Virus record (IMG/VR): IMGVR_UViG_3300025011_000016
Length of the DNA: 64,000 bases
Origin: a virus
Taxonomy: Duplodnaviria; Caudoviricetes
Strand: one strand, 5' to 3'
Below the pieces are notes generated by a model, which was not told the origin of the DNA, did no database searches, and saw nothing but the letters and a program-made list of their open reading frames with translations. Each line of letters starts with the position of its first letter. The first letter of the stretch is position 1. Both the position numbers and the translations under genes were made by a program. Positions 41,793 through 60,740 of the stretch are shown here, one piece after another.

Positions 41793-44615
41793 ATGAAAAT
41801 TGTACCTAATAAACAACAAAAGAAAGCTGTTATTGAATCAGTGAAATGGTTAAAGAGTGGTTATAAACAAGTCTTTGAAATATCAGGTCCTCCAGGATCA
41901 GGTAAAACCTTTATAGTTTATTTAATACGAAAGGCAATGAAGCTAAATCCCTTGGATGTTCTATTTATGGCATATGTAGGAAAAGCTACAATGGCTTTGA
42001 CATTACAAGGTAATAATGCAAAGACAATGCATAGTTCTATTTATGATAGGGTTGATTTACCTAAGATGGATGAGAATGGTAAGTTTATTTTAAAAAATGG
42101 TAGAATACTTACAACTCCTGGTTTTGTTAAGAAAAAATCTTTACCTGATAATATAAAACTTATAGTGGTGGACGAAGGTTCTATGATTAATGAAAAATAC
42201 GCTTTAGATATTTTAAGCTTCAAGTTACCAGTTTTAGTGCTCGGGGACTTAAATCAGCTTTTTCCTATCTTTGGGAAACCTTATTTCTTAAGACAACCTG
42301 ATATTATATTAACAGAAATTATGAGACAGGCTAAAGATGATCCTATTATTCATTTAAGTCAAAAGGCAATTAATGGTGAAATTATTGAGATAGGAAAATA
42401 TGGTGATAGATGTTTTGTTATTAATAAAGAAGATATCACAGACAATATGCTTACAAAAACAGATATCGTTATTTGTGGTAAAAATAAGACACGGGATCAT
42501 ATAAATAAATATGTTAGAGAAGAAATATATAAAATAGACAAGCCTTATCCAGTAAAAGGTGAGAAATTAATATGTAGACAAAATAATTGGGATATGTCTG
42601 TCGATGAAGGTAAAATATTCTTAGTTAATGGTCTTGTAGGTTACGTTGAAGAAACACATTTAGACACTTATAATAAAAGATCTTTATGTATTGATTTTAG
42701 GCCTGAGTTTTTAAAAGAAACTTGTTTTGAAAGAGTAGCAATTGATTCTTTTATGAGTCACGTTGCATAGTAATATGCAATTGCAACTACTTTAATTGCG
42801 GGAAACTCCTTAGAACTTTATCTACTAATGTAACATGATAAAGATTGGACAATCTGCAGCCAATGATCTATTCATAATAGATTTAGGTCCAACGACTAGA
42901 ATGGGAAAGTTCGTAGGGCTCAAGTGAGTGGGTGAGACTCCCTTAAATCGAAATGGGTGGCCCCATTATAATAATTAGTATAATGGGTGAAGATATAGTC
43001 TGTGCTTTAAGGAAACTTAGAGAATAACTAACCGTAAGTCTTAATAACTATTCTGTATATAATTATATTATACAGTTAACAAATAATATAAGAACGGGGG
43101 TGATATAAAATGATTAAGACTTTTAAAACAAGAATACGACCGAATAAAGAACAAGAGGTATATTTAAATAAGTGCTTTGGGTATAGAAGGTTTATATATA
43201 ATAATGCGTTAGAATACTTTAATACTCTTTTAAAATATAATAATAATGTTATTGATAAGGATTTAAAGAAGTTCTTTGATAAATTTGATTATATTACTCA
43301 TATATATTCTAAGAAAGAAAAGGGACCGGGATTTGAATGGACTAAAGAATATAATAAGTCCATAAAGAATGAAGTGGCTAGTGATGTTAACTTAGCTGTT
43401 AATAGATTTTTTAAAGATATTAAAAATAAGAAGCGTTGTAAACTGCATTTTAAAAGAAAGGTTCATGGAAATGGATCGTTTAGAATATATAGTAAGCATA
43501 AAACTAATGTTATGATTCTTGATATGAAATTATTCTCTTTTATTATTAATAGAGAATTTGGTCATATGTCATTAAAAACATATGAGGACATAAGTTTCTT
43601 ATATCATCATGATATAAAAACAATGACTATTAGTATGAAGAATTTTAAATATTATGTCTCATTTACTTATGAAATAGATGTTCCAAAGCATAAGCATGAG
43701 AAAGATACCATAGGTATAGATTTAGGGATACATAATCCGGTAGTTTGTTTTGATGGAAAAGATATCATAAATCCTAAATTTCCGAAAGGAATTATTAAGA
43801 AACTAGAGAAGAGAGCCGATAAATTTTCAACGATAGTTTCTAAGAAGAAATATGATAAATGTAATCCATCAAAGAACTATATAAAAGCGAGAACCAAGCT
43901 TAATTATATTCATGGTAAGATAGTGAATATTAGAATGGATTATATTCAGAAGGTTTCAACCTTCTTAACTAAGACTTATAGAAATATCGTAGTTGATGAA
44001 TTTAGTTTTAAAGAATTACTAACAGAGTCTGATGGTATTAAACGTATTAATAGAGGTATACATAGAGTAGGTGCCTTTACGTTTATGCAAGTGTTAAAAT
44101 ATAAATGTCACTTTTACGGCAGTGAATATATTTTAGCCGAACCTAATAGTACCATTACATGCTCTGAATGTAATCATAAACTTAAAACTAAGTTGAAGTT
44201 ATCCCAAAGAGTCTTTAATTGTCCTGATTGTGGATATATAGATGATAGGGATAATAATGCGGCTATTAATATTTATAAGTCATATAAGAATCTTTATTAA
44301 CTAACGTAAATAGAGATTTCGCCGTTGGTCGGACGGTTTAAAGAACCTTGACGGTTAAGTTATTGTGGTATCTAACGAATACTACTAACACGACAGTATA
44401 AGCATTTATTTACACCATATGAACAGAGAGATAATAAACGTAGCTATTATAATAAATTTGAATTTGCCAACGCAATAAGCGTTCATTTATCACAAGGATC
44501 ACAATATAATACAGTTTTAATATATAATGAAAGAATGGGAGATAAAGAGTATTATAAGAAATGGTTATATACAGCAATATCGAGAGCGGTATCCGGATTA
44601 GTATTGGCCGTTTAA
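41793..44615 (+). CDS. RecD/Dda-like SF1B helicase; exons 41793-42746 and 44397-44615, about 390 aa
   Basis: GPPGSGKT, VVDEGSMI, LGDLNQL, LTEIMRQ; exon 2 supplies FANAISVHLSQGSQY and LYTAISRA. Confidence 0.9.
43110..44300 (+). CDS. tnpB: TnpB RNA-guided endonuclease (IS605 OrfB family)
   Basis: N-terminal KTFKTRIRPNKEQ HTH; RuvC GIDLG, VVDEF, DRDNNAAINI; CSEC...CPDC Zn finger. Confidence 0.93.
   Translation: MIKTFKTRIRPNKEQEVYLNKCFGYRRFIYNNALEYFNTLLKYNNNVIDKDLKKFFDKFDYITHIYSKKEKGPGFEWTKEYNKSIKNEVASDVNLAVNRFFKDIKNKKRCKLHFKRKVHGNGSFRIYSKHKTNVMILDMKLFSFIINREFGHMSLKTYEDISFLYHHDIKTMTISMKNFKYYVSFTYEIDVPKHKHEKDTIGIDLGIHNPVVCFDGKDIINPKFPKGIIKKLEKRADKFSTIVSKKKYDKCNPSKNYIKARTKLNYIHGKIVNIRMDYIQKVSTFLTKTYRNIVVDEFSFKELLTESDGIKRINRGIHRVGAFTFMQVLKYKCHFYGSEYILAEPNSTITCSECNHKLKTKLKLSQRVFNCPDCGYIDDRDNNAAINIYKSYKNLY
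44300..44396 (+). ncRNA. putative omegaRNA scaffold / IS605 right end (5' limit uncertain, may extend into tnpB)
   Basis: Nearly identical block at 56285-56381; hairpins GCCGUU/GACGGU and GUGGUAU/AUACUAC. Confidence 0.65.
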
Positions 44616-54342: not shown

Positions 54343-55506
54343 ATGGCTAAAGATGACAGTGTTTTATTAGATGAGTTATATCCTTTAGTTGAAAAGGGTT
54401 TATCTAAAAAGGAAAATAGTATGAAGATAAAGAAAGCTGTTGGTGAGTTCTTAGATAGAAATTCTGAGAAATTAACTACTATTGGCCCGATCCATCAAAT
54501 GATGTTTACAGATGAAGATATGAAAAAACTATACGATGCTATCGAAGTTCCACCTGAGCAGATAAAAGAGATAATTAAGAAATCTCCATATATACAAACT
54601 CAGTGGAAGATTATGAATAATCCATTTAATTCAGCTTGTGTATTAGCACTCAGATTTTATAAATTACATAAGAATGATGAAATGGTTAATTCAGTCTTAA
54701 TATATCTAACTATGTCTATGTATCCATCATTATTTCATAAATACTTTCAGTTTGAACCCAATGAAAACATAATGAATTATACTATTAATAGCTTATCTAA
54801 TAAATTTAAAATTAAACAAACTGGTACTATATATGGGGCATTAATAGATACTGTTAGAGTGAATGATACAAAATATGGAGATGAGGTATTACATGGGACT
54901 GATAAAGAATTAGTAGATTATATTAACTCTATTAAAACTCGTTTGAATAGTTTATTAAAACATATCTCTATTGAGTTTTATAAGAATCATGAAAATAAAA
55001 ATTATATGAATTCAGACTCTGATAATTTAGAAGAAGAAAACTATCATGAAGCTGACAGTAATTTATATGCAATTGAAAGGATAACTAATAATGTAGTTCT
55101 TAAATTAACAGTAGAAGGGCCTAATATTAAATTGATCAATATGGCTGCTGAATTATCACAAGTTAGTAGAAATGAATTAAGGAATTATGTAAATTCAATG
55201 GTCTTAAATAATAATAGAGATGATATCAAAATTATAGTAGAGAGTATATTATTCTTATTTTTATTTGATTCACAAAATCAAATTCAAGAATTAAGTAGTA
55301 ATAAATTTCTATTGTATTGTAGAGAGATGTATCGAAAGTCTAATACAAATGATGAAAACATAATAAAGATAAAGAAGATATTAGACTCATGGTTAACTGA
55401 CTTAGGAACATATAAAAAGACCCAAAGATTAGCTACTATTAACTCATTTAGAAAAGCTTTATTTATGTTTTTTGTTATAAGTATCCAGAATGCAAATGTA
55501 GTTTAA
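54343..55506 (+). CDS. hypothetical protein
   Basis: Long helical ORF; AGGTG; AACA-N6-TA upstream. Confidence 0.65.
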   Translation: MAKDDSVLLDELYPLVEKGLSKKENSMKIKKAVGEFLDRNSEKLTTIGPIHQMMFTDEDMKKLYDAIEVPPEQIKEIIKKSPYIQTQWKIMNNPFNSACVLALRFYKLHKNDEMVNSVLIYLTMSMYPSLFHKYFQFEPNENIMNYTINSLSNKFKIKQTGTIYGALIDTVRVNDTKYGDEVLHGTDKELVDYINSIKTRLNSLLKHISIEFYKNHENKNYMNSDSDNLEEENYHEADSNLYAIERITNNVVLKLTVEGPNIKLINMAAELSQVSRNELRNYVNSMVLNNNRDDIKIIVESILFLFLFDSQNQIQELSSNKFLLYCREMYRKSNTNDENIIKIKKILDSWLTDLGTYKKTQRLATINSFRKALFMFFVISIQNANVV

Positions 55507-55790
55507 AGATGATACGAATATGATTTAAATCATATTCGTATCATCTTTATCTTCCTCTATATAGACATCTTCACATTTTAAACCTCTAATTAACATACTC
55601 TCAAATATATCATCGGGAATTTCATTTACCAAGTATTTATTATATGAGTTGAGTTTACAACCGGCTTCTACATCTTTGACACCTATGAATTAGTTCATTC
55701 ATTAACATATCAGCTCCTTTATTTATATGTAAACACTTTTTTATAGTATAATGAAAACATTTTATTAATTGAGACATTATAAAGGAGGAT

Positions 55791-56381
55791 TCATATTGAG
55801 TCTCGTTGCATAGTAATATGTAATTGTAACTACTTTAATTGCGGGAAACTCCTTAGTGCTTAAAACACTTTTAAAGTAACAAAGTTTAAGATTGGACAAT
55901 CCGCAGCCAAAGTTATTATTTAATAACGAGGCTCAACGACTATCCCAATGGTACTAAAATGTACATTAGGAGTAGGGCTCAAGTGAGTGGGTGAGATTCC
56001 CTTAAATCGAAAAGGGTAGCCCCATTATTATAATGGGTGAAGATATAGTCTGTGCTTTAAGGAGACTTAGAGATATAACTTAACCGTAAGTAAGTCTTAA
56101 TAATTCATTCTTAATAAGATATTATTATAGTTATAACAAATAATATAAGAAGGGGGTGACGATAAATGTTTAAAACTTTTAAATACATCTGACTAAAAAA
56201 GCTATGTATTGACACGAAACTTATAAATAATGGCGATAACCAAGCCTATTAATAATATTTATAAGTTGTAAAAATCTTTATTAACTAGCGTAAATAGAGA
56301 TTTCGCCGTTGGTCGGACGGTTTAAAGAACCTTGACGGTTAAGTTATAAGTGGTATCTAACTAATACTACTAACACGACAG
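55791..56381 (+). mobile_element. non-autonomous IStron-like group I intron (591 nt, tnpB deleted) between the SD and start codon
   Basis: 5' end, core and 3' end are homologous to 42747-44396; residual tnpB ends (ATGTTTAAAACTTTTAAA ... AATATTTATAAG...AATCTTTATTAA). Confidence 0.88.
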
Positions 56382-56385
56382 GAAT

Positions 56386-58063
56386 ATGTCTATTACTAAA
56401 CAGGCTAGAAAACAAATGGAATTATTAATTTATTCAGTATTTACAGCTTTAGATCCAACTGGTTCTAATACTGCTAAATATAAAGAATTATTTGGTAAAA
56501 TGAATGATACTCAATTTGATAAATTCTTCAAAGATTTCTTTAAAGAGGAAGATGAGTATCTTATATTAGACGTTATTGATTATGAGTTAAATCTTCAAAT
56601 GGAAGATGTAGAAAGAGCTGCAAAGATTCTTGATGTACCTTTATTCGAAAAAGTTGCAATGCCATTTATTAACAACAATACAGAAAATCCTGTTGTTACT
56701 CAATATGAAGTTCCGGTTGGTTACATTAACTTGAAACGGGTTCAACAAATATTAGCTAAAAAAAATACTACATCTACAGAAATATCAACACGTTCTGCTA
56801 TAACAGGACAAGTTGTTGGTAAGGATAAAAATGCCAGAGATTCAGATCAGGAGAATTTTGCTCTTGTCACTTTAAATGCTACGAACACATTACGTGAGCT
56901 TTTGGGTTATGTTGCTTAGCCCCTATATACGGTAACGTATATAGCAAACTTCTTTAATTGCAGGAAATTCCTTAGAGCTTATTATATGAAGATTGGATAA
57001 TCTGCATCATATTTTCTAATGATTAAAATATTTTCTTACTAATAAATATACAATATTTTAAAGGATGTGAATTATAAAAATGTATATAGTCATTCGTAAA
57101 GATAGAGAAATATTTAAACTTGTAACATATCCTAAAGTCAAACCTGATACTTATGAAGTTAGTAATTATGGTAATATTAGAAATTTAAAAACTGGCAAAT
57201 TAGTAAAATTATTTCCCGATACAAAAGGTTATCCTTTTGCAAATCTTATGTATAAAAAATCCATTGCTCGTAGTGTTAATATCCATAGGTTGGTAGCGTG
57301 GGAATTTGTAGATGGATATGATATAGATCGAGGGAGAACTAATGTTAATCATCTGGACAGCGATCCTACTAATAATTATTATGAAAACCTTGAATGGGTT
57401 ACAACTAAAGAAAATAATCAACATGGTATTAAACATGGTAAGATTAGATTTGGTGCAGGTGGTAGTCTAAATTATAAAGCTAGATATAATGAAGAATTTT
57501 GTTCGTAAACTATGTCCATACATTGAAAAAGGACTCACTCAAATGGAAATAATGCATATTTACGGTTATAAAACAAGAAAAGAAAATAAAAGTTTATATT
57601 CTTTAATAGATGGAATTTACTGGGGTGTGTGGAGAGAGGTATCAAAAGAATTTAATATTAATATAAAACAAGAAAAATGTTCAACGACTATCCTTTAGAT
57701 GTGAAATTCATCATTAGGAGTAGGGCCTAAGTAGGTGGGTGAGACTCCCTTAAATCGAAATAAGAAGCATCTTATATAAGATGATGATATAGTCTTGTAT
57801 CCTATATAACTATAGGGAAGTTCATAAGAGAACTGCATAGATTAACGAACTATGTGAAAGTATCGCCCAGGAGTGATGACCTTGTGATGAAAAATCAAAT
57901 GTATGCTAGTATAGCTCAAAAAGGATATGTATCACTAGATGAACTACCGAACGATGTTGCCAATAAAACAACGCTGAATACAATTGATGTGCATCTTATT
58001 GGCTTAGGTATTAAAAGCGATTTAATCACTCAAGGATTATTAGTTAGAAAGACTATGAAATAA
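56386..58063 (+). CDS. rpoB: RNA polymerase beta-like C-terminal subunit; exons 56386-56907 and 57866-58063, about 239 aa
   Basis: VPVGYINLKRVQQ, TGQVVG, TLRELLG|PRSDD match the bacterial beta C-terminus (VGYMY.LKL, TLQEMLTVKSDD). Confidence 0.82.
56908..57865 (+). mobile_element. group I intron (958 nt) carrying an HNH homing endonuclease gene
   Basis: P1 GGGU/GCCC; P/Q before and R/S after the ORF; 3' G at 57865. Confidence 0.9.
57080..57698 (+). pseudogene. NUMOD4-HNH homing endonuclease, frameshifted near 57497-57500
   Basis: YEVSNYGNIR, IHRLVA..F, VNHLD....NN...NLEW; the C-terminal part continues in another frame after a TTTT run. Confidence 0.75.
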
Positions 58064-58103
58064 AAAAATAATAAGATGAGTTTAACTCATCTTATTATTT
58101 TTT
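58062..58103. terminator. bidirectional terminator
   Basis: AATAATAAGATGAG...CTCATCTTATTATT with A and T runs. Confidence 0.78.
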
Positions 58104-59594: not shown

Positions 59595-60740
59595 GTGATA
59601 ATATTGCTAAAGTTATGTATTATTGGATTGGGTAATTGTGGTAATCAAATCGCTGAATTAGCAAAGAAAGAGAAGAATATTCCGGGTATCGCTATTAATA
59701 GTTCTGAAAAAGATCTTACTACTATCAATACTGTTGATAAGATCCTAATAGGCGATATGATGGGTAGTGGTAAAGATCGGAATGAAGCTAAACGCTTCAT
59801 AACTCAAAATATTCAGTTGATACTTCAACAAGAAGTATTTAAAAAGCTGATAGAAGAAAGTAACGTGATATTCATAGCTTCTTCTACTAGTGGCGGAACT
59901 GGCTCTGGTATGACACCGATCTTAACTGAAATACTTACGAAAATTTACCATGGGAAAAGATTCGTTGTCATTCATGTTTATCCGGCAATTAGTGAGTCTG
60001 TTGCGGCTCAACAAAACTCACTGGACTATTTAAAAGAGTTGAGACAATTTATTCCCAATATTACCTATATGGCTTATGATAATCATCGTAGGTCAAATGA
60101 GCCGACTGACAGAATGATGACTGAAATCAACATGCAAGTGGTTAATGACATTTGTGTGATCCGTGGAGATTATCAATACTCAACTCAATATAGTTCAATT
60201 GATGAAAAGGATATGCTTAAGTTAATTGAAACTCCAGGCCGGTTGTTGATAACAACTGTAAATGGTTTAAAGGAAAAAGATCTTGATGAAAAATCTGTTG
60301 AGGATATCTTAATATTTGATATCAAGAACACTTCAGTAGCAGTGGAAATTGAGCGTGACCGACTTATAAAAAGAATAGGTCTGATCACGAACTTAAATGA
60401 TAAAATCCATAAAGCATTCAATACTAAGTTAATTATCTTCAAAGAATTTATCGGTGAGCCGGTAGAAGGATTCGAACATATCCATATCAATAAAGGCCCA
60501 GATGAATCTAATCAAATTATTGTAATAATGTCTGGCTTATCAGTTCCAGACGATCGTATTCAGAAAATGATTCAAAGGATTGAAGAAGTTCGATCGGAGT
60601 TAATGAAAGTTCAAGGATCATCTATCCTCGATTCCATAAAAACCGAGGATATTGATATATTACGAGAAAACTCTGGACGGTTTGATCCAGAGAGTCAAAT
60701 TAACCTGACTGACGTTATGGCAAAATATCTTAAGCGTTAA
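59595..60740 (+). CDS. tubulin/FtsZ-family GTPase (PhuZ/TubZ-like)
   Basis: IGLGNCGNQIA, GSGKD, STSGGTGSG signature. Confidence 0.9.
   Translation: MIILLKLCIIGLGNCGNQIAELAKKEKNIPGIAINSSEKDLTTINTVDKILIGDMMGSGKDRNEAKRFITQNIQLILQQEVFKKLIEESNVIFIASSTSGGTGSGMTPILTEILTKIYHGKRFVVIHVYPAISESVAAQQNSLDYLKELRQFIPNITYMAYDNHRRSNEPTDRMMTEINMQVVNDICVIRGDYQYSTQYSSIDEKDMLKLIETPGRLLITTVNGLKEKDLDEKSVEDILIFDIKNTSVAVEIERDRLIKRIGLITNLNDKIHKAFNTKLIIFKEFIGEPVEGFEHIHINKGPDESNQIIVIMSGLSVPDDRIQKMIQRIEEVRSELMKVQGSSILDSIKTEDIDILRENSGRFDPESQINLTDVMAKYLKR

Follow-up and report, generated by a model that had tools for sequence, protein, structure and literature searches.

A predicted self-splicing IStron remnant lies between the Shine-Dalgarno sequence and the start codon of an RNA polymerase β-subunit gene in a large groundwater phage

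A group I intron of 591 nucleotides (nt), here called copy A, separates the Shine-Dalgarno (SD) sequence from the AUG of an RNA polymerase (RNAP) β-subunit gene in the virus record IMGVR_UViG_3300025011_000016 of IMG/VR (Duplodnaviria; Caudoviricetes), of which a stretch of 64,000 nt, in the following the window, was analysed. The window was read from the minus strand of the 100,486-bp record, which stems from a groundwater metagenome and has an estimated completeness of ~42%; unless stated otherwise, positions are those of the window. The gene codes for the C-terminal part of the β subunit (β-C), and copy A is a derivative of a TnpB-carrying IStron that lacks an open reading frame (ORF), its tnpB having been deleted. 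Splicing would rejoin the SD to the AUG, and the element is probably a tolerated selfish insertion rather than an evolved switch. The region comprises the following parts:

55709-55790, plus strand: 5' exon, leader of the β-C gene, with the SD AAAGGAGG at 55781-55788 and T55790 as the last exon base.
55791-56381, plus strand: ORF-less IStron copy A, a group I ribozyme with the remains of an IS605-type TnpB module (recognised by Rfam, both ends set by alignment to paralogs).
55781-56072, plus strand: group I core, P1 to P9 (Rfam alignment).
56074-56087, plus strand: 5' arm of a 14-bp inverted-repeat stem closing the insertion sequence (IS)-derived part, a perfect complement of 56335-56348.
56148-56192, plus strand: remnant of the tnpB start with the ribosome-binding site (RBS) AGAAGGGGGTGA, ATG 56166 and the reading MFKTFKYI* (56166-56192), aligning with the tnpB starts of paralogs B (MIKTFKTRIRPNK) and C (LIKTFKTRIRPTK).
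56250-56381, plus strand: right-end block with a tnpB 3' coding remnant, the presumed ωRNA scaffold, the 3' arm of the stem (56335-56348), a terminal hairpin and ωG (G56381).
56382-56388, plus strand: start of the 3' exon, GAAU followed by the AUG, where AAUAUG (56383-88) can form P10.
56386-56907, plus strand: exon 1 of the β-C gene, 174 codons (phrog_3233, RNA polymerase beta subunit).

The initial annotation, made from the letters of the window, had described a self-splicing IStron remnant at this place, and all its coordinates and sequence strings were found correct upon rechecking. The string AAAGGAGGAT occupies 55781-55790, the intron following it ends in ...CACGACAG, and GAAT (56382-56385) leads to the ATG at 56386; without splicing, this AUG is preceded only by AGGA at a distance of 2 nt. 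Its classification as a group I intron stands on an RF00028 match spanning the full model (positions 1-253) with 86.3 bits at a gathering score of 50 (E 1.4e-20), far beyond chance. The designation as an IStron remnant was likewise borne out, as paralogs with intact TnpB were found and copy A has retained the RBS of tnpB, six codons derived from this gene and the right-end block; in all, ~190 nt of right end are preserved, which include a remnant of the TnpB C-terminus.

The two paralogs, B and C, were retrieved by BLAST of the 591 nt against the 100-kb record, and copy B, being complete, served as a control for the element boundaries:

42747-44396, plus strand: paralog B, a full IStron within a superfamily 1 (SF1) helicase gene, with tnpB at 43110-44300.

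The ORF of copy B encodes 396 amino acids (aa) with the Pfam domains HTH_OrfB_IS605, OrfB_IS605 and Cas12f1-like_TNB and is thus a TnpB. Copy C lies where the record ends; its core is the same, and its TnpB, truncated by the contig end at >382 aa, is 84% identical to that of B. The cores of B and C are 78-82% identical to that of A; between A and B, identity is 78% over intron positions 7-393 and 93% over the last 132 nt, the right-end block (44264-44396 in B), which is also nearly invariant in a further, metagenomic copy (L025). In the three-way alignment, similarity starts directly after ...GAT (AGGAT in A, TTGAT in B, TAGAT in C), and it ends at CGACAG in A, B and L025. Splicing of copy B after TTGAT and after CGACAG joins the SF1 helicase in frame (...RVAID/YKHLF..., with the slash marking the junction) and restores its C-terminal motifs, so the boundaries of B are functional splice sites. 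Since the Rfam model stops at P9, the 3' end of copy A had to be placed by another method; alignment to paralog B, whose boundaries restore the helicase frame, sets it at G56381, and a P10 of six base pairs supports this position.

The ribozyme core of copy A is intact. In P1, the exon bases GGAU (55787-90) pair with GUCU (55800-03) of the internal guide sequence (IGS), including a U90-G00 wobble at the 5' splice site, and this pairing places the cut after U55790. The IGS covaries with the exon among the copies (GGAU/GUCU in A, UGAU/GUCA in B, AGAU/GUCU in C), and compensatory changes occur at nine pairs in P3, P5a and P6a of the three cores. P10 of copy A is formed by AAUAUG (56383-88) and CAUAUU (55792-97), for which the chance of an exact match in one fixed register at this base composition is ~9e-4; in copy B, a P10 of five base pairs is found in the same register. 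G56381, the terminal base of the block common to A, B and L025, takes the position of ωG, and the 14-bp closing stem is present in the minimum-free-energy fold (z -5.6). With 86.3 bits, the core of copy A scores as high as that of copy B (80.8 bits when scanned alone), which must be functional.

The gene downstream of copy A has 200 homologs, mostly of ~240 aa. A search of the PDB with the single β-C protein gave no match and a homolog profile was needed; with a profile of 23 homologs, all 27 matches were bacterial β subunits, covering residues 1224-1309 of the Escherichia coli protein, with a best E value that is weak (0.006). The N-termini of the homologs (M-x-I-x-K-x-x-R-x-x-M-E) coincide with ATG 56386, which on this alignment is the homologous start codon. 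Eight distinct relatives without an intron in the leader were found, and six of them (L048, L004, L007, L001, L002 and L003) carry an SD of the type GGAGG or GAGGTG 5-8 nt before the start, for instance AAAGGAGGtttaataaATGTCTATT in L048 and GGAGGtttagctaATG in L004; in the other two, the SD is at 3 nt (L046) and at 0 nt (L009). The 120 nt upstream of the SD of the window phage align to the leader of L004 with a score of 98.5, compared with 64.3 ± 4.9 for shuffled sequences, none of 300 being as good. The β-C protein of L004 is 83% identical, and its gene order is the same, including a small divergent gene upstream. Leader alignment and gene order together mark L004 as an orthologous empty site.

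Homolog N-termini, the SDs of the intronless relatives and the leader alignment thus agree with the earlier statement that the intron lies between the cognate SD and the homologous β-C start. It had also been stated that removal of the intron yields AGGAGG-ATGAAT-ATG, and the resulting spacing of 6 nt is within the normal range of the phage: AGGAGG is found 6-11 nt from start codons in this record, AGGAGGAT is common, and AGGAGG(AT) is the SD used as a rule. In the unspliced RNA, the AGGA stands 2 nt from the AUG, outside this range. As the SD is only 6 nt from the AUG after splicing and the AGGA of the unspliced RNA is misplaced, efficient translation of β-C most likely requires splicing; that β-C is translated solely from spliced RNA, as the initial annotation proposed, is a reasonable supposition.

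Ligation of the exons also creates an additional in-frame AUG (A55789 U55790/G56382), two codons upstream of the homologous start. This junctional AUG abuts the SD and is probably unused. It was considered as the true start and rejected, since in all homologs ten residues precede the conserved Met-Glu, in agreement with ATG 56386; it follows that a 14-mer, AAAGGAGGATGAAT, common to the window phage and L009 is partly coincidental.

The course of events may be pictured as follows. A mobile IStron, made up of a group I ribozyme and an IS605-family TnpB/ωRNA module, would have inserted directly 3' of AGGAT, a sequence resembling a target-adjacent motif (TAM) that happens to be the end of the β-C SD, and a later internal deletion would have removed almost all of tnpB. 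In the primary transcript, the SD (55781-88) would then be ~600 nt away from AUG 56386, which is left with the misplaced AGGA only. P1 (GGAU/GUCU) would form, guanosine triphosphate (GTP) would attack after U55790, and U55790 would be joined to G56382 behind ωG 56381 while the AUG region is held in P10. Ligation would restore AAAGGAGGAU/GAAUAUG, a normal SD with a spacer of 6 nt. Published IStrons, ORF-less constructs included, splice exactly at the transposon ends (10.1101/2023.11.20.567912; PMC4227781). That copy A splices, that transcription begins upstream of it and that translation depends on its removal are inferences from the arrangement of these elements.

Several observations weigh against this reading. 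A sigma-70-type promoter scan performed no better on the leader than on shuffled sequences, so that a transcription start inside the intron is possible; k-mer enrichment upstream of SD-led genes gave AT-rich words only, and TATAAT at 55747-52 is a hint at most. None of the runs containing this DNA is registered as RNA, and three SOLiD metatranscriptome runs of the same study contained nothing on 55600-58100, which is uninformative. A joint of 55790 to 56382, as expected of an intronless allele of the same strain, was absent from four DNA runs, and nine out of nine other assemblies with the identical protein carry the intron. SD-independent initiation on the AT-rich leader is conceivable. The flank of copy A, AGGAT, keeps the GAT but departs in its first two bases from the group A consensus TTGAT/ATTAT/TTTAT, and the 3' terminus is ACAG (CGACAG) in all copies and not the TCAG of group A.

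The contig L036 had been considered as a differing allele; it was rejected because it is a chimeric assembly, joined through a different IStron copy (TTTAGAT/TC...).

The most serious competitor to a tolerated insertion holds that the arrangement is an evolved or exploited switch, with splicing and β-C translation tuned by TnpB of a sibling element acting on the ωRNA region, by the ωRNA fold or by ribosomes at the SD. We consider this unlikely. It draws on the strong repression of IStron splicing by TnpB and ωRNA structure in elements of Clostridium botulinum (10.1101/2023.11.20.567912; PMC13521648) and on the existence of a regulated group I ribozyme in a 5' untranslated region (UTR) of Clostridioides difficile (PMC3984707). 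Copy A retains the nearly invariant right-end block, intact TnpB genes are present in the same record, with copy B as a possible source of TnpB in trans, the SD overlaps P1 and the AUG lies within P10. However, the insertion is conserved in no relative, the leaders of the eight relatives being intronless, and intragenic copies preserve the right-end block to the same degree, so that its conservation needs no function specific to the leader. There is, moreover, no sensor domain, Rfam giving no aptamer or other family above threshold in or beside copy A. It is just as doubtful that TnpB from the siblings, or ribosome access to the SD in P1, sets the amount of β-C, that is, that transposon RNA gates translation of the subunit; if true, such gating would tie the RNA-guided upkeep of a transposon directly to the transcription apparatus of the phage.

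A smaller probability still is given to an inactive relic, in which no splicing takes place and the gene is expressed without the upstream SD, or poorly. Decay of tnpB, the AGGA 2 nt before the AUG and the negative promoter scan would be in line with this, yet the core scores like those of functional paralogs, P1, P10, ωG and the closing stem are all kept, the gene is intact and codes for part of an essential enzyme, and an AGGA at 2 nt is outside the SD spacing range of the phage.

Small hairpins bridge split ribosome-binding sites for some T4 genes. In an analogous manner, P1 and P10 stacked on one guide could bring the SD to the AUG and permit translation without splicing, and indeed both the end of the SD and the AUG are placed on the same internal guide sequence; but since the SD and the AUG would then both be paired and enclosed within a tertiary fold of 591 nt, such a bridge is very improbable, and we know of no precedent of that size. 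A 3' splice site just after P9 (~56072), with 56073-56381 as ordinary leader containing IS debris, would match the end of the Rfam model and is the least credible proposal, because P9 extensions are never part of that model, the helicase of paralog B is restored only by splicing at the homologous CGACAG, the closing stem and P10 point to G56381, and splicing at ~56072 would leave the SD without a nearby start codon.

Returning to the ORF-less IStron as a tolerated insertion, its nearest described counterparts are the group A IStrons, such as CdISt1 of C. difficile (IS200/IS605 type), in which a 5' group I ribozyme is combined with TnpB in the 3' part (PMC4227781). As in that group, copy B sits directly behind a pentanucleotide ending in GAT/T (TTGAT), the complete unit would be removed by splicing, most copies lack ORF A or have it in decayed form, and multiple copies reside at unrelated sites. 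The present elements differ in being carried by a large phage of virulent type and not by a Firmicute chromosome, in ending in ACAG instead of TCAG, in the AGGAT flank of copy A and in the lack of any TnpA trace in the 100-kb record. No Y1_Tnp match above the cut-off was obtained in this ~42% complete record, the best hit reaching 18.6 bits against a cut-off of 23 and lying in an unrelated ORF. Insertion flanks are TTGAT in B, TAGAT in C and in the copy of the chimeric contig L036, TTGAT or ATGAT in other copies of the sample, and AGGAT in A. Because of its variant ACAG terminus, the family is best called group-A-like. Its TnpB is ~32% identical to the best matches in the phage collection that was compared, no TnpB relatives were found in viral_contigs, and a 19-mer of the right end had no match in viral_contigs either; a 17-mer of the right end matched 19 metagenome contigs, among which only L025 is a true copy.

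Overlap of the right-end region with an ωRNA may be expected by analogy with the IStron literature (10.1101/2023.11.20.567912); the scaffold in copy A is presumed from the conservation of the block and its likeness to published IStrons. In the source metagenomes, 56276-56336 within this block has ~16x the depth of its flanks, which implies that the community contains on the order of 15 copies of the IStron end, most of them probably in this phage.

ORF-less IStrons have been described before, namely the 482-nt BcISt1 variants of emetic Bacillus cereus and, in C. difficile, palindrome-associated transposable elements (PATE) with IStron ends, which likewise lost the transposase and nuclease genes and kept the ribozyme and the ends (PMC4227781; 10.1101/2023.11.20.567912). 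BcISt1 belongs to group B (IS607 type); copy A differs from it in its long right end, its recognisable tnpB start and its position splitting the SD from the AUG. IStrons are also known in C. botulinum phages (PMC4227781). The premise of the initial annotation that bacterial and phage group I introns normally sit in coding regions or structural RNAs proved overstated. In an IStron survey, 118 of 202 insertions were intragenic (58%, leaving ~42% that were not), with multicopy elements, many without ORF A, and ORF-less forms among them (PMC4227781); a non-coding position is therefore not exceptional. The 5'-UTR ribozyme of C. difficile (PMC3984707) is a further case. According to the account of Lee et al. 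2010 given in PMC3984707, this allosteric group I ribozyme depends on cyclic di-GMP, and its splicing puts the RBS at working distance from the start. It resembles copy A as a leader ribozyme whose splicing joins RBS and start codon. The C. difficile ribozyme is described there as a domesticated regulator, equipped with a riboswitch aptamer and with alternative sites of GTP attack, whereas copy A is a recent-looking mobile insertion with no aptamer and no evidence of regulation.

A related element is found in the gyrB gene of the Staphylococcus jumbo phage Machias (MW349128.1), which also encodes an RNAP. Its exon ends in ...CGGAT, its compact core scores 43.7 bits (E 4e-10), its tnpB product is 32% identical, and the element ends in ...AAGACAG/ATGTACGTTGG, continuing GyrB. 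Unlike copy A, it is intragenic (codon 24 of gyrB), its tnpB is intact, and its core is much smaller and below the Rfam gathering score. In the Machias locus (L042, 1158-2890), gyrB appears to begin at locus position 1158 (MTSTYSGSNIKHLEGLEAVRHRSD/); the gyrB coding sequence of the record starts after the element, leaving the first exon unannotated, and tnpB is annotated only as 'transposase'.

Classical phage group I introns with homing endonucleases (T4 td and nrdB, Twort, SPO1) share with copy A self-splicing in essential phage genes. They lie in coding sequence at conserved motifs and spread by protein-guided homing, whereas copy A lies in a leader and derives from a TnpB/ωRNA element. The β-C gene itself contains a second intron of the classical kind, with an HNH ORF:

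56908-57865, plus strand: second group I intron of the β-C gene, with an HNH/NUMOD4 endonuclease ORF at 57080-57508 (Pfam HNH_3, NUMOD4).
57866-58063, plus strand: exon 2, 65 codons and stop, 86% identical to residues 175-239 of the intronless homolog P0002.

In a tblastn search with P0002, the match breaks at LRELLG/PRSDD (E. coli β ~residue 1300), after codon 174, and a weak Rfam match covers 57669-57817. L009 and L046 also carry an intron with an HNH ORF at this site; most relatives have no intron there.

Copy A is a variation on described elements, and nothing points to an adaptive role. Support was obtained for the structural interpretation; the functional one is plausible, and a role of copy A as a regulator is unsupported. 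Three features are new: the occurrence in a large environmental phage that encodes an RNAP and harbours many such copies, the altered terminus, and an insertion point exactly between the SD and the AUG of an essential gene. Copy A would thus be a natural case in which a self-splicing transposon relic parts the RBS from the start codon of an essential viral gene, and in which splicing would be needed to initiate translation at all, beyond the repair of a reading frame. The cost and benefit of IStron splicing and of its repression by TnpB/ωRNA would thus become measurable with a simple reporter. The range of TnpB-type IStrons is extended to large RNAP-encoding phages, at least one of them a cultured Staphylococcus jumbo phage whose element had gone without annotation, and in such phages they appear to act as RNA-guided homing introns beside the classical endonuclease introns.

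A short reading frame overlaps the first helices of the ribozyme:

55796-55813, plus strand: five-codon ORF TTG AGT CTC GTT GCA TAG, overlapping P1/P2 and starting 7 nt after GGAGG; its significance is doubtful.

Copies B and C have ATG AGT CNC NTT GCA TAG in the same place. Since GGAU of the SD also serves as the exon side of P1, ribosomes engaged on this TTG-initiated mini-ORF could possibly compete with the helix, as the initial annotation had suggested. Its conservation in B and C is explained by the same bases forming P1/P2, and in B the TAG is the in-frame stop after exon 1.

Upstream of the leader, a small Cys-rich divergent gene (55550-55722, minus strand) contains a frameshift when compared with the 62-aa homolog of L004: its frame, MLMNELIHRCQRC..., stops after 17 codons and the remainder (GCKLNSYNKYLVNEIPDD...) continues in another frame. 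As the frameshift is identical in several assemblies, it represents either a pseudogene or a recoding site. Between this gene and a convergent gene of 395 aa lies a perfect 23-bp palindromic hairpin (55504-55549), which probably terminates transcription in both directions, although it was not called by the terminator scan, a method that requires G+C-rich stems.

The window further encodes a PhuZ-like tubulin, topoisomerase II, a UvsX-like recombinase and pieces of a multisubunit RNA polymerase, a gene set that is, judged by its predicted products, that of a large RNAP-encoding phage. No close relative was found in the phage collection searched. The tubulin/PhuZ-like gene (59595-60740) is situated 1.5 kb downstream of the β-C gene. 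A phage with a PhuZ-like tubulin that separates transcription from translation would let leader introns fold free of ribosomes, which is a possibility here; a shell protein of a phage nucleus was not recognised among ten large ORFs, and the idea of a nucleus rests on the tubulin.

Above the gathering threshold, Rfam reported 14 group I introns in the window (11911-57865) and six more in the rest of the record (L011 5406-7779), a count that is a lower bound as the Rfam speed filters skipped copies B and C in long scans. The absence of paralog B from these scans was accordingly dismissed as a speed-filter artefact. Two segments, 42 nt at 97.6% identity (57817-57858) and 62 nt at 93.5% (55956-56017), match intron-like sequence in RNAP β' genes of Vibrio jumbo phages and in an Enterococcus phage, which suggests that distant phages have intron modules in common.

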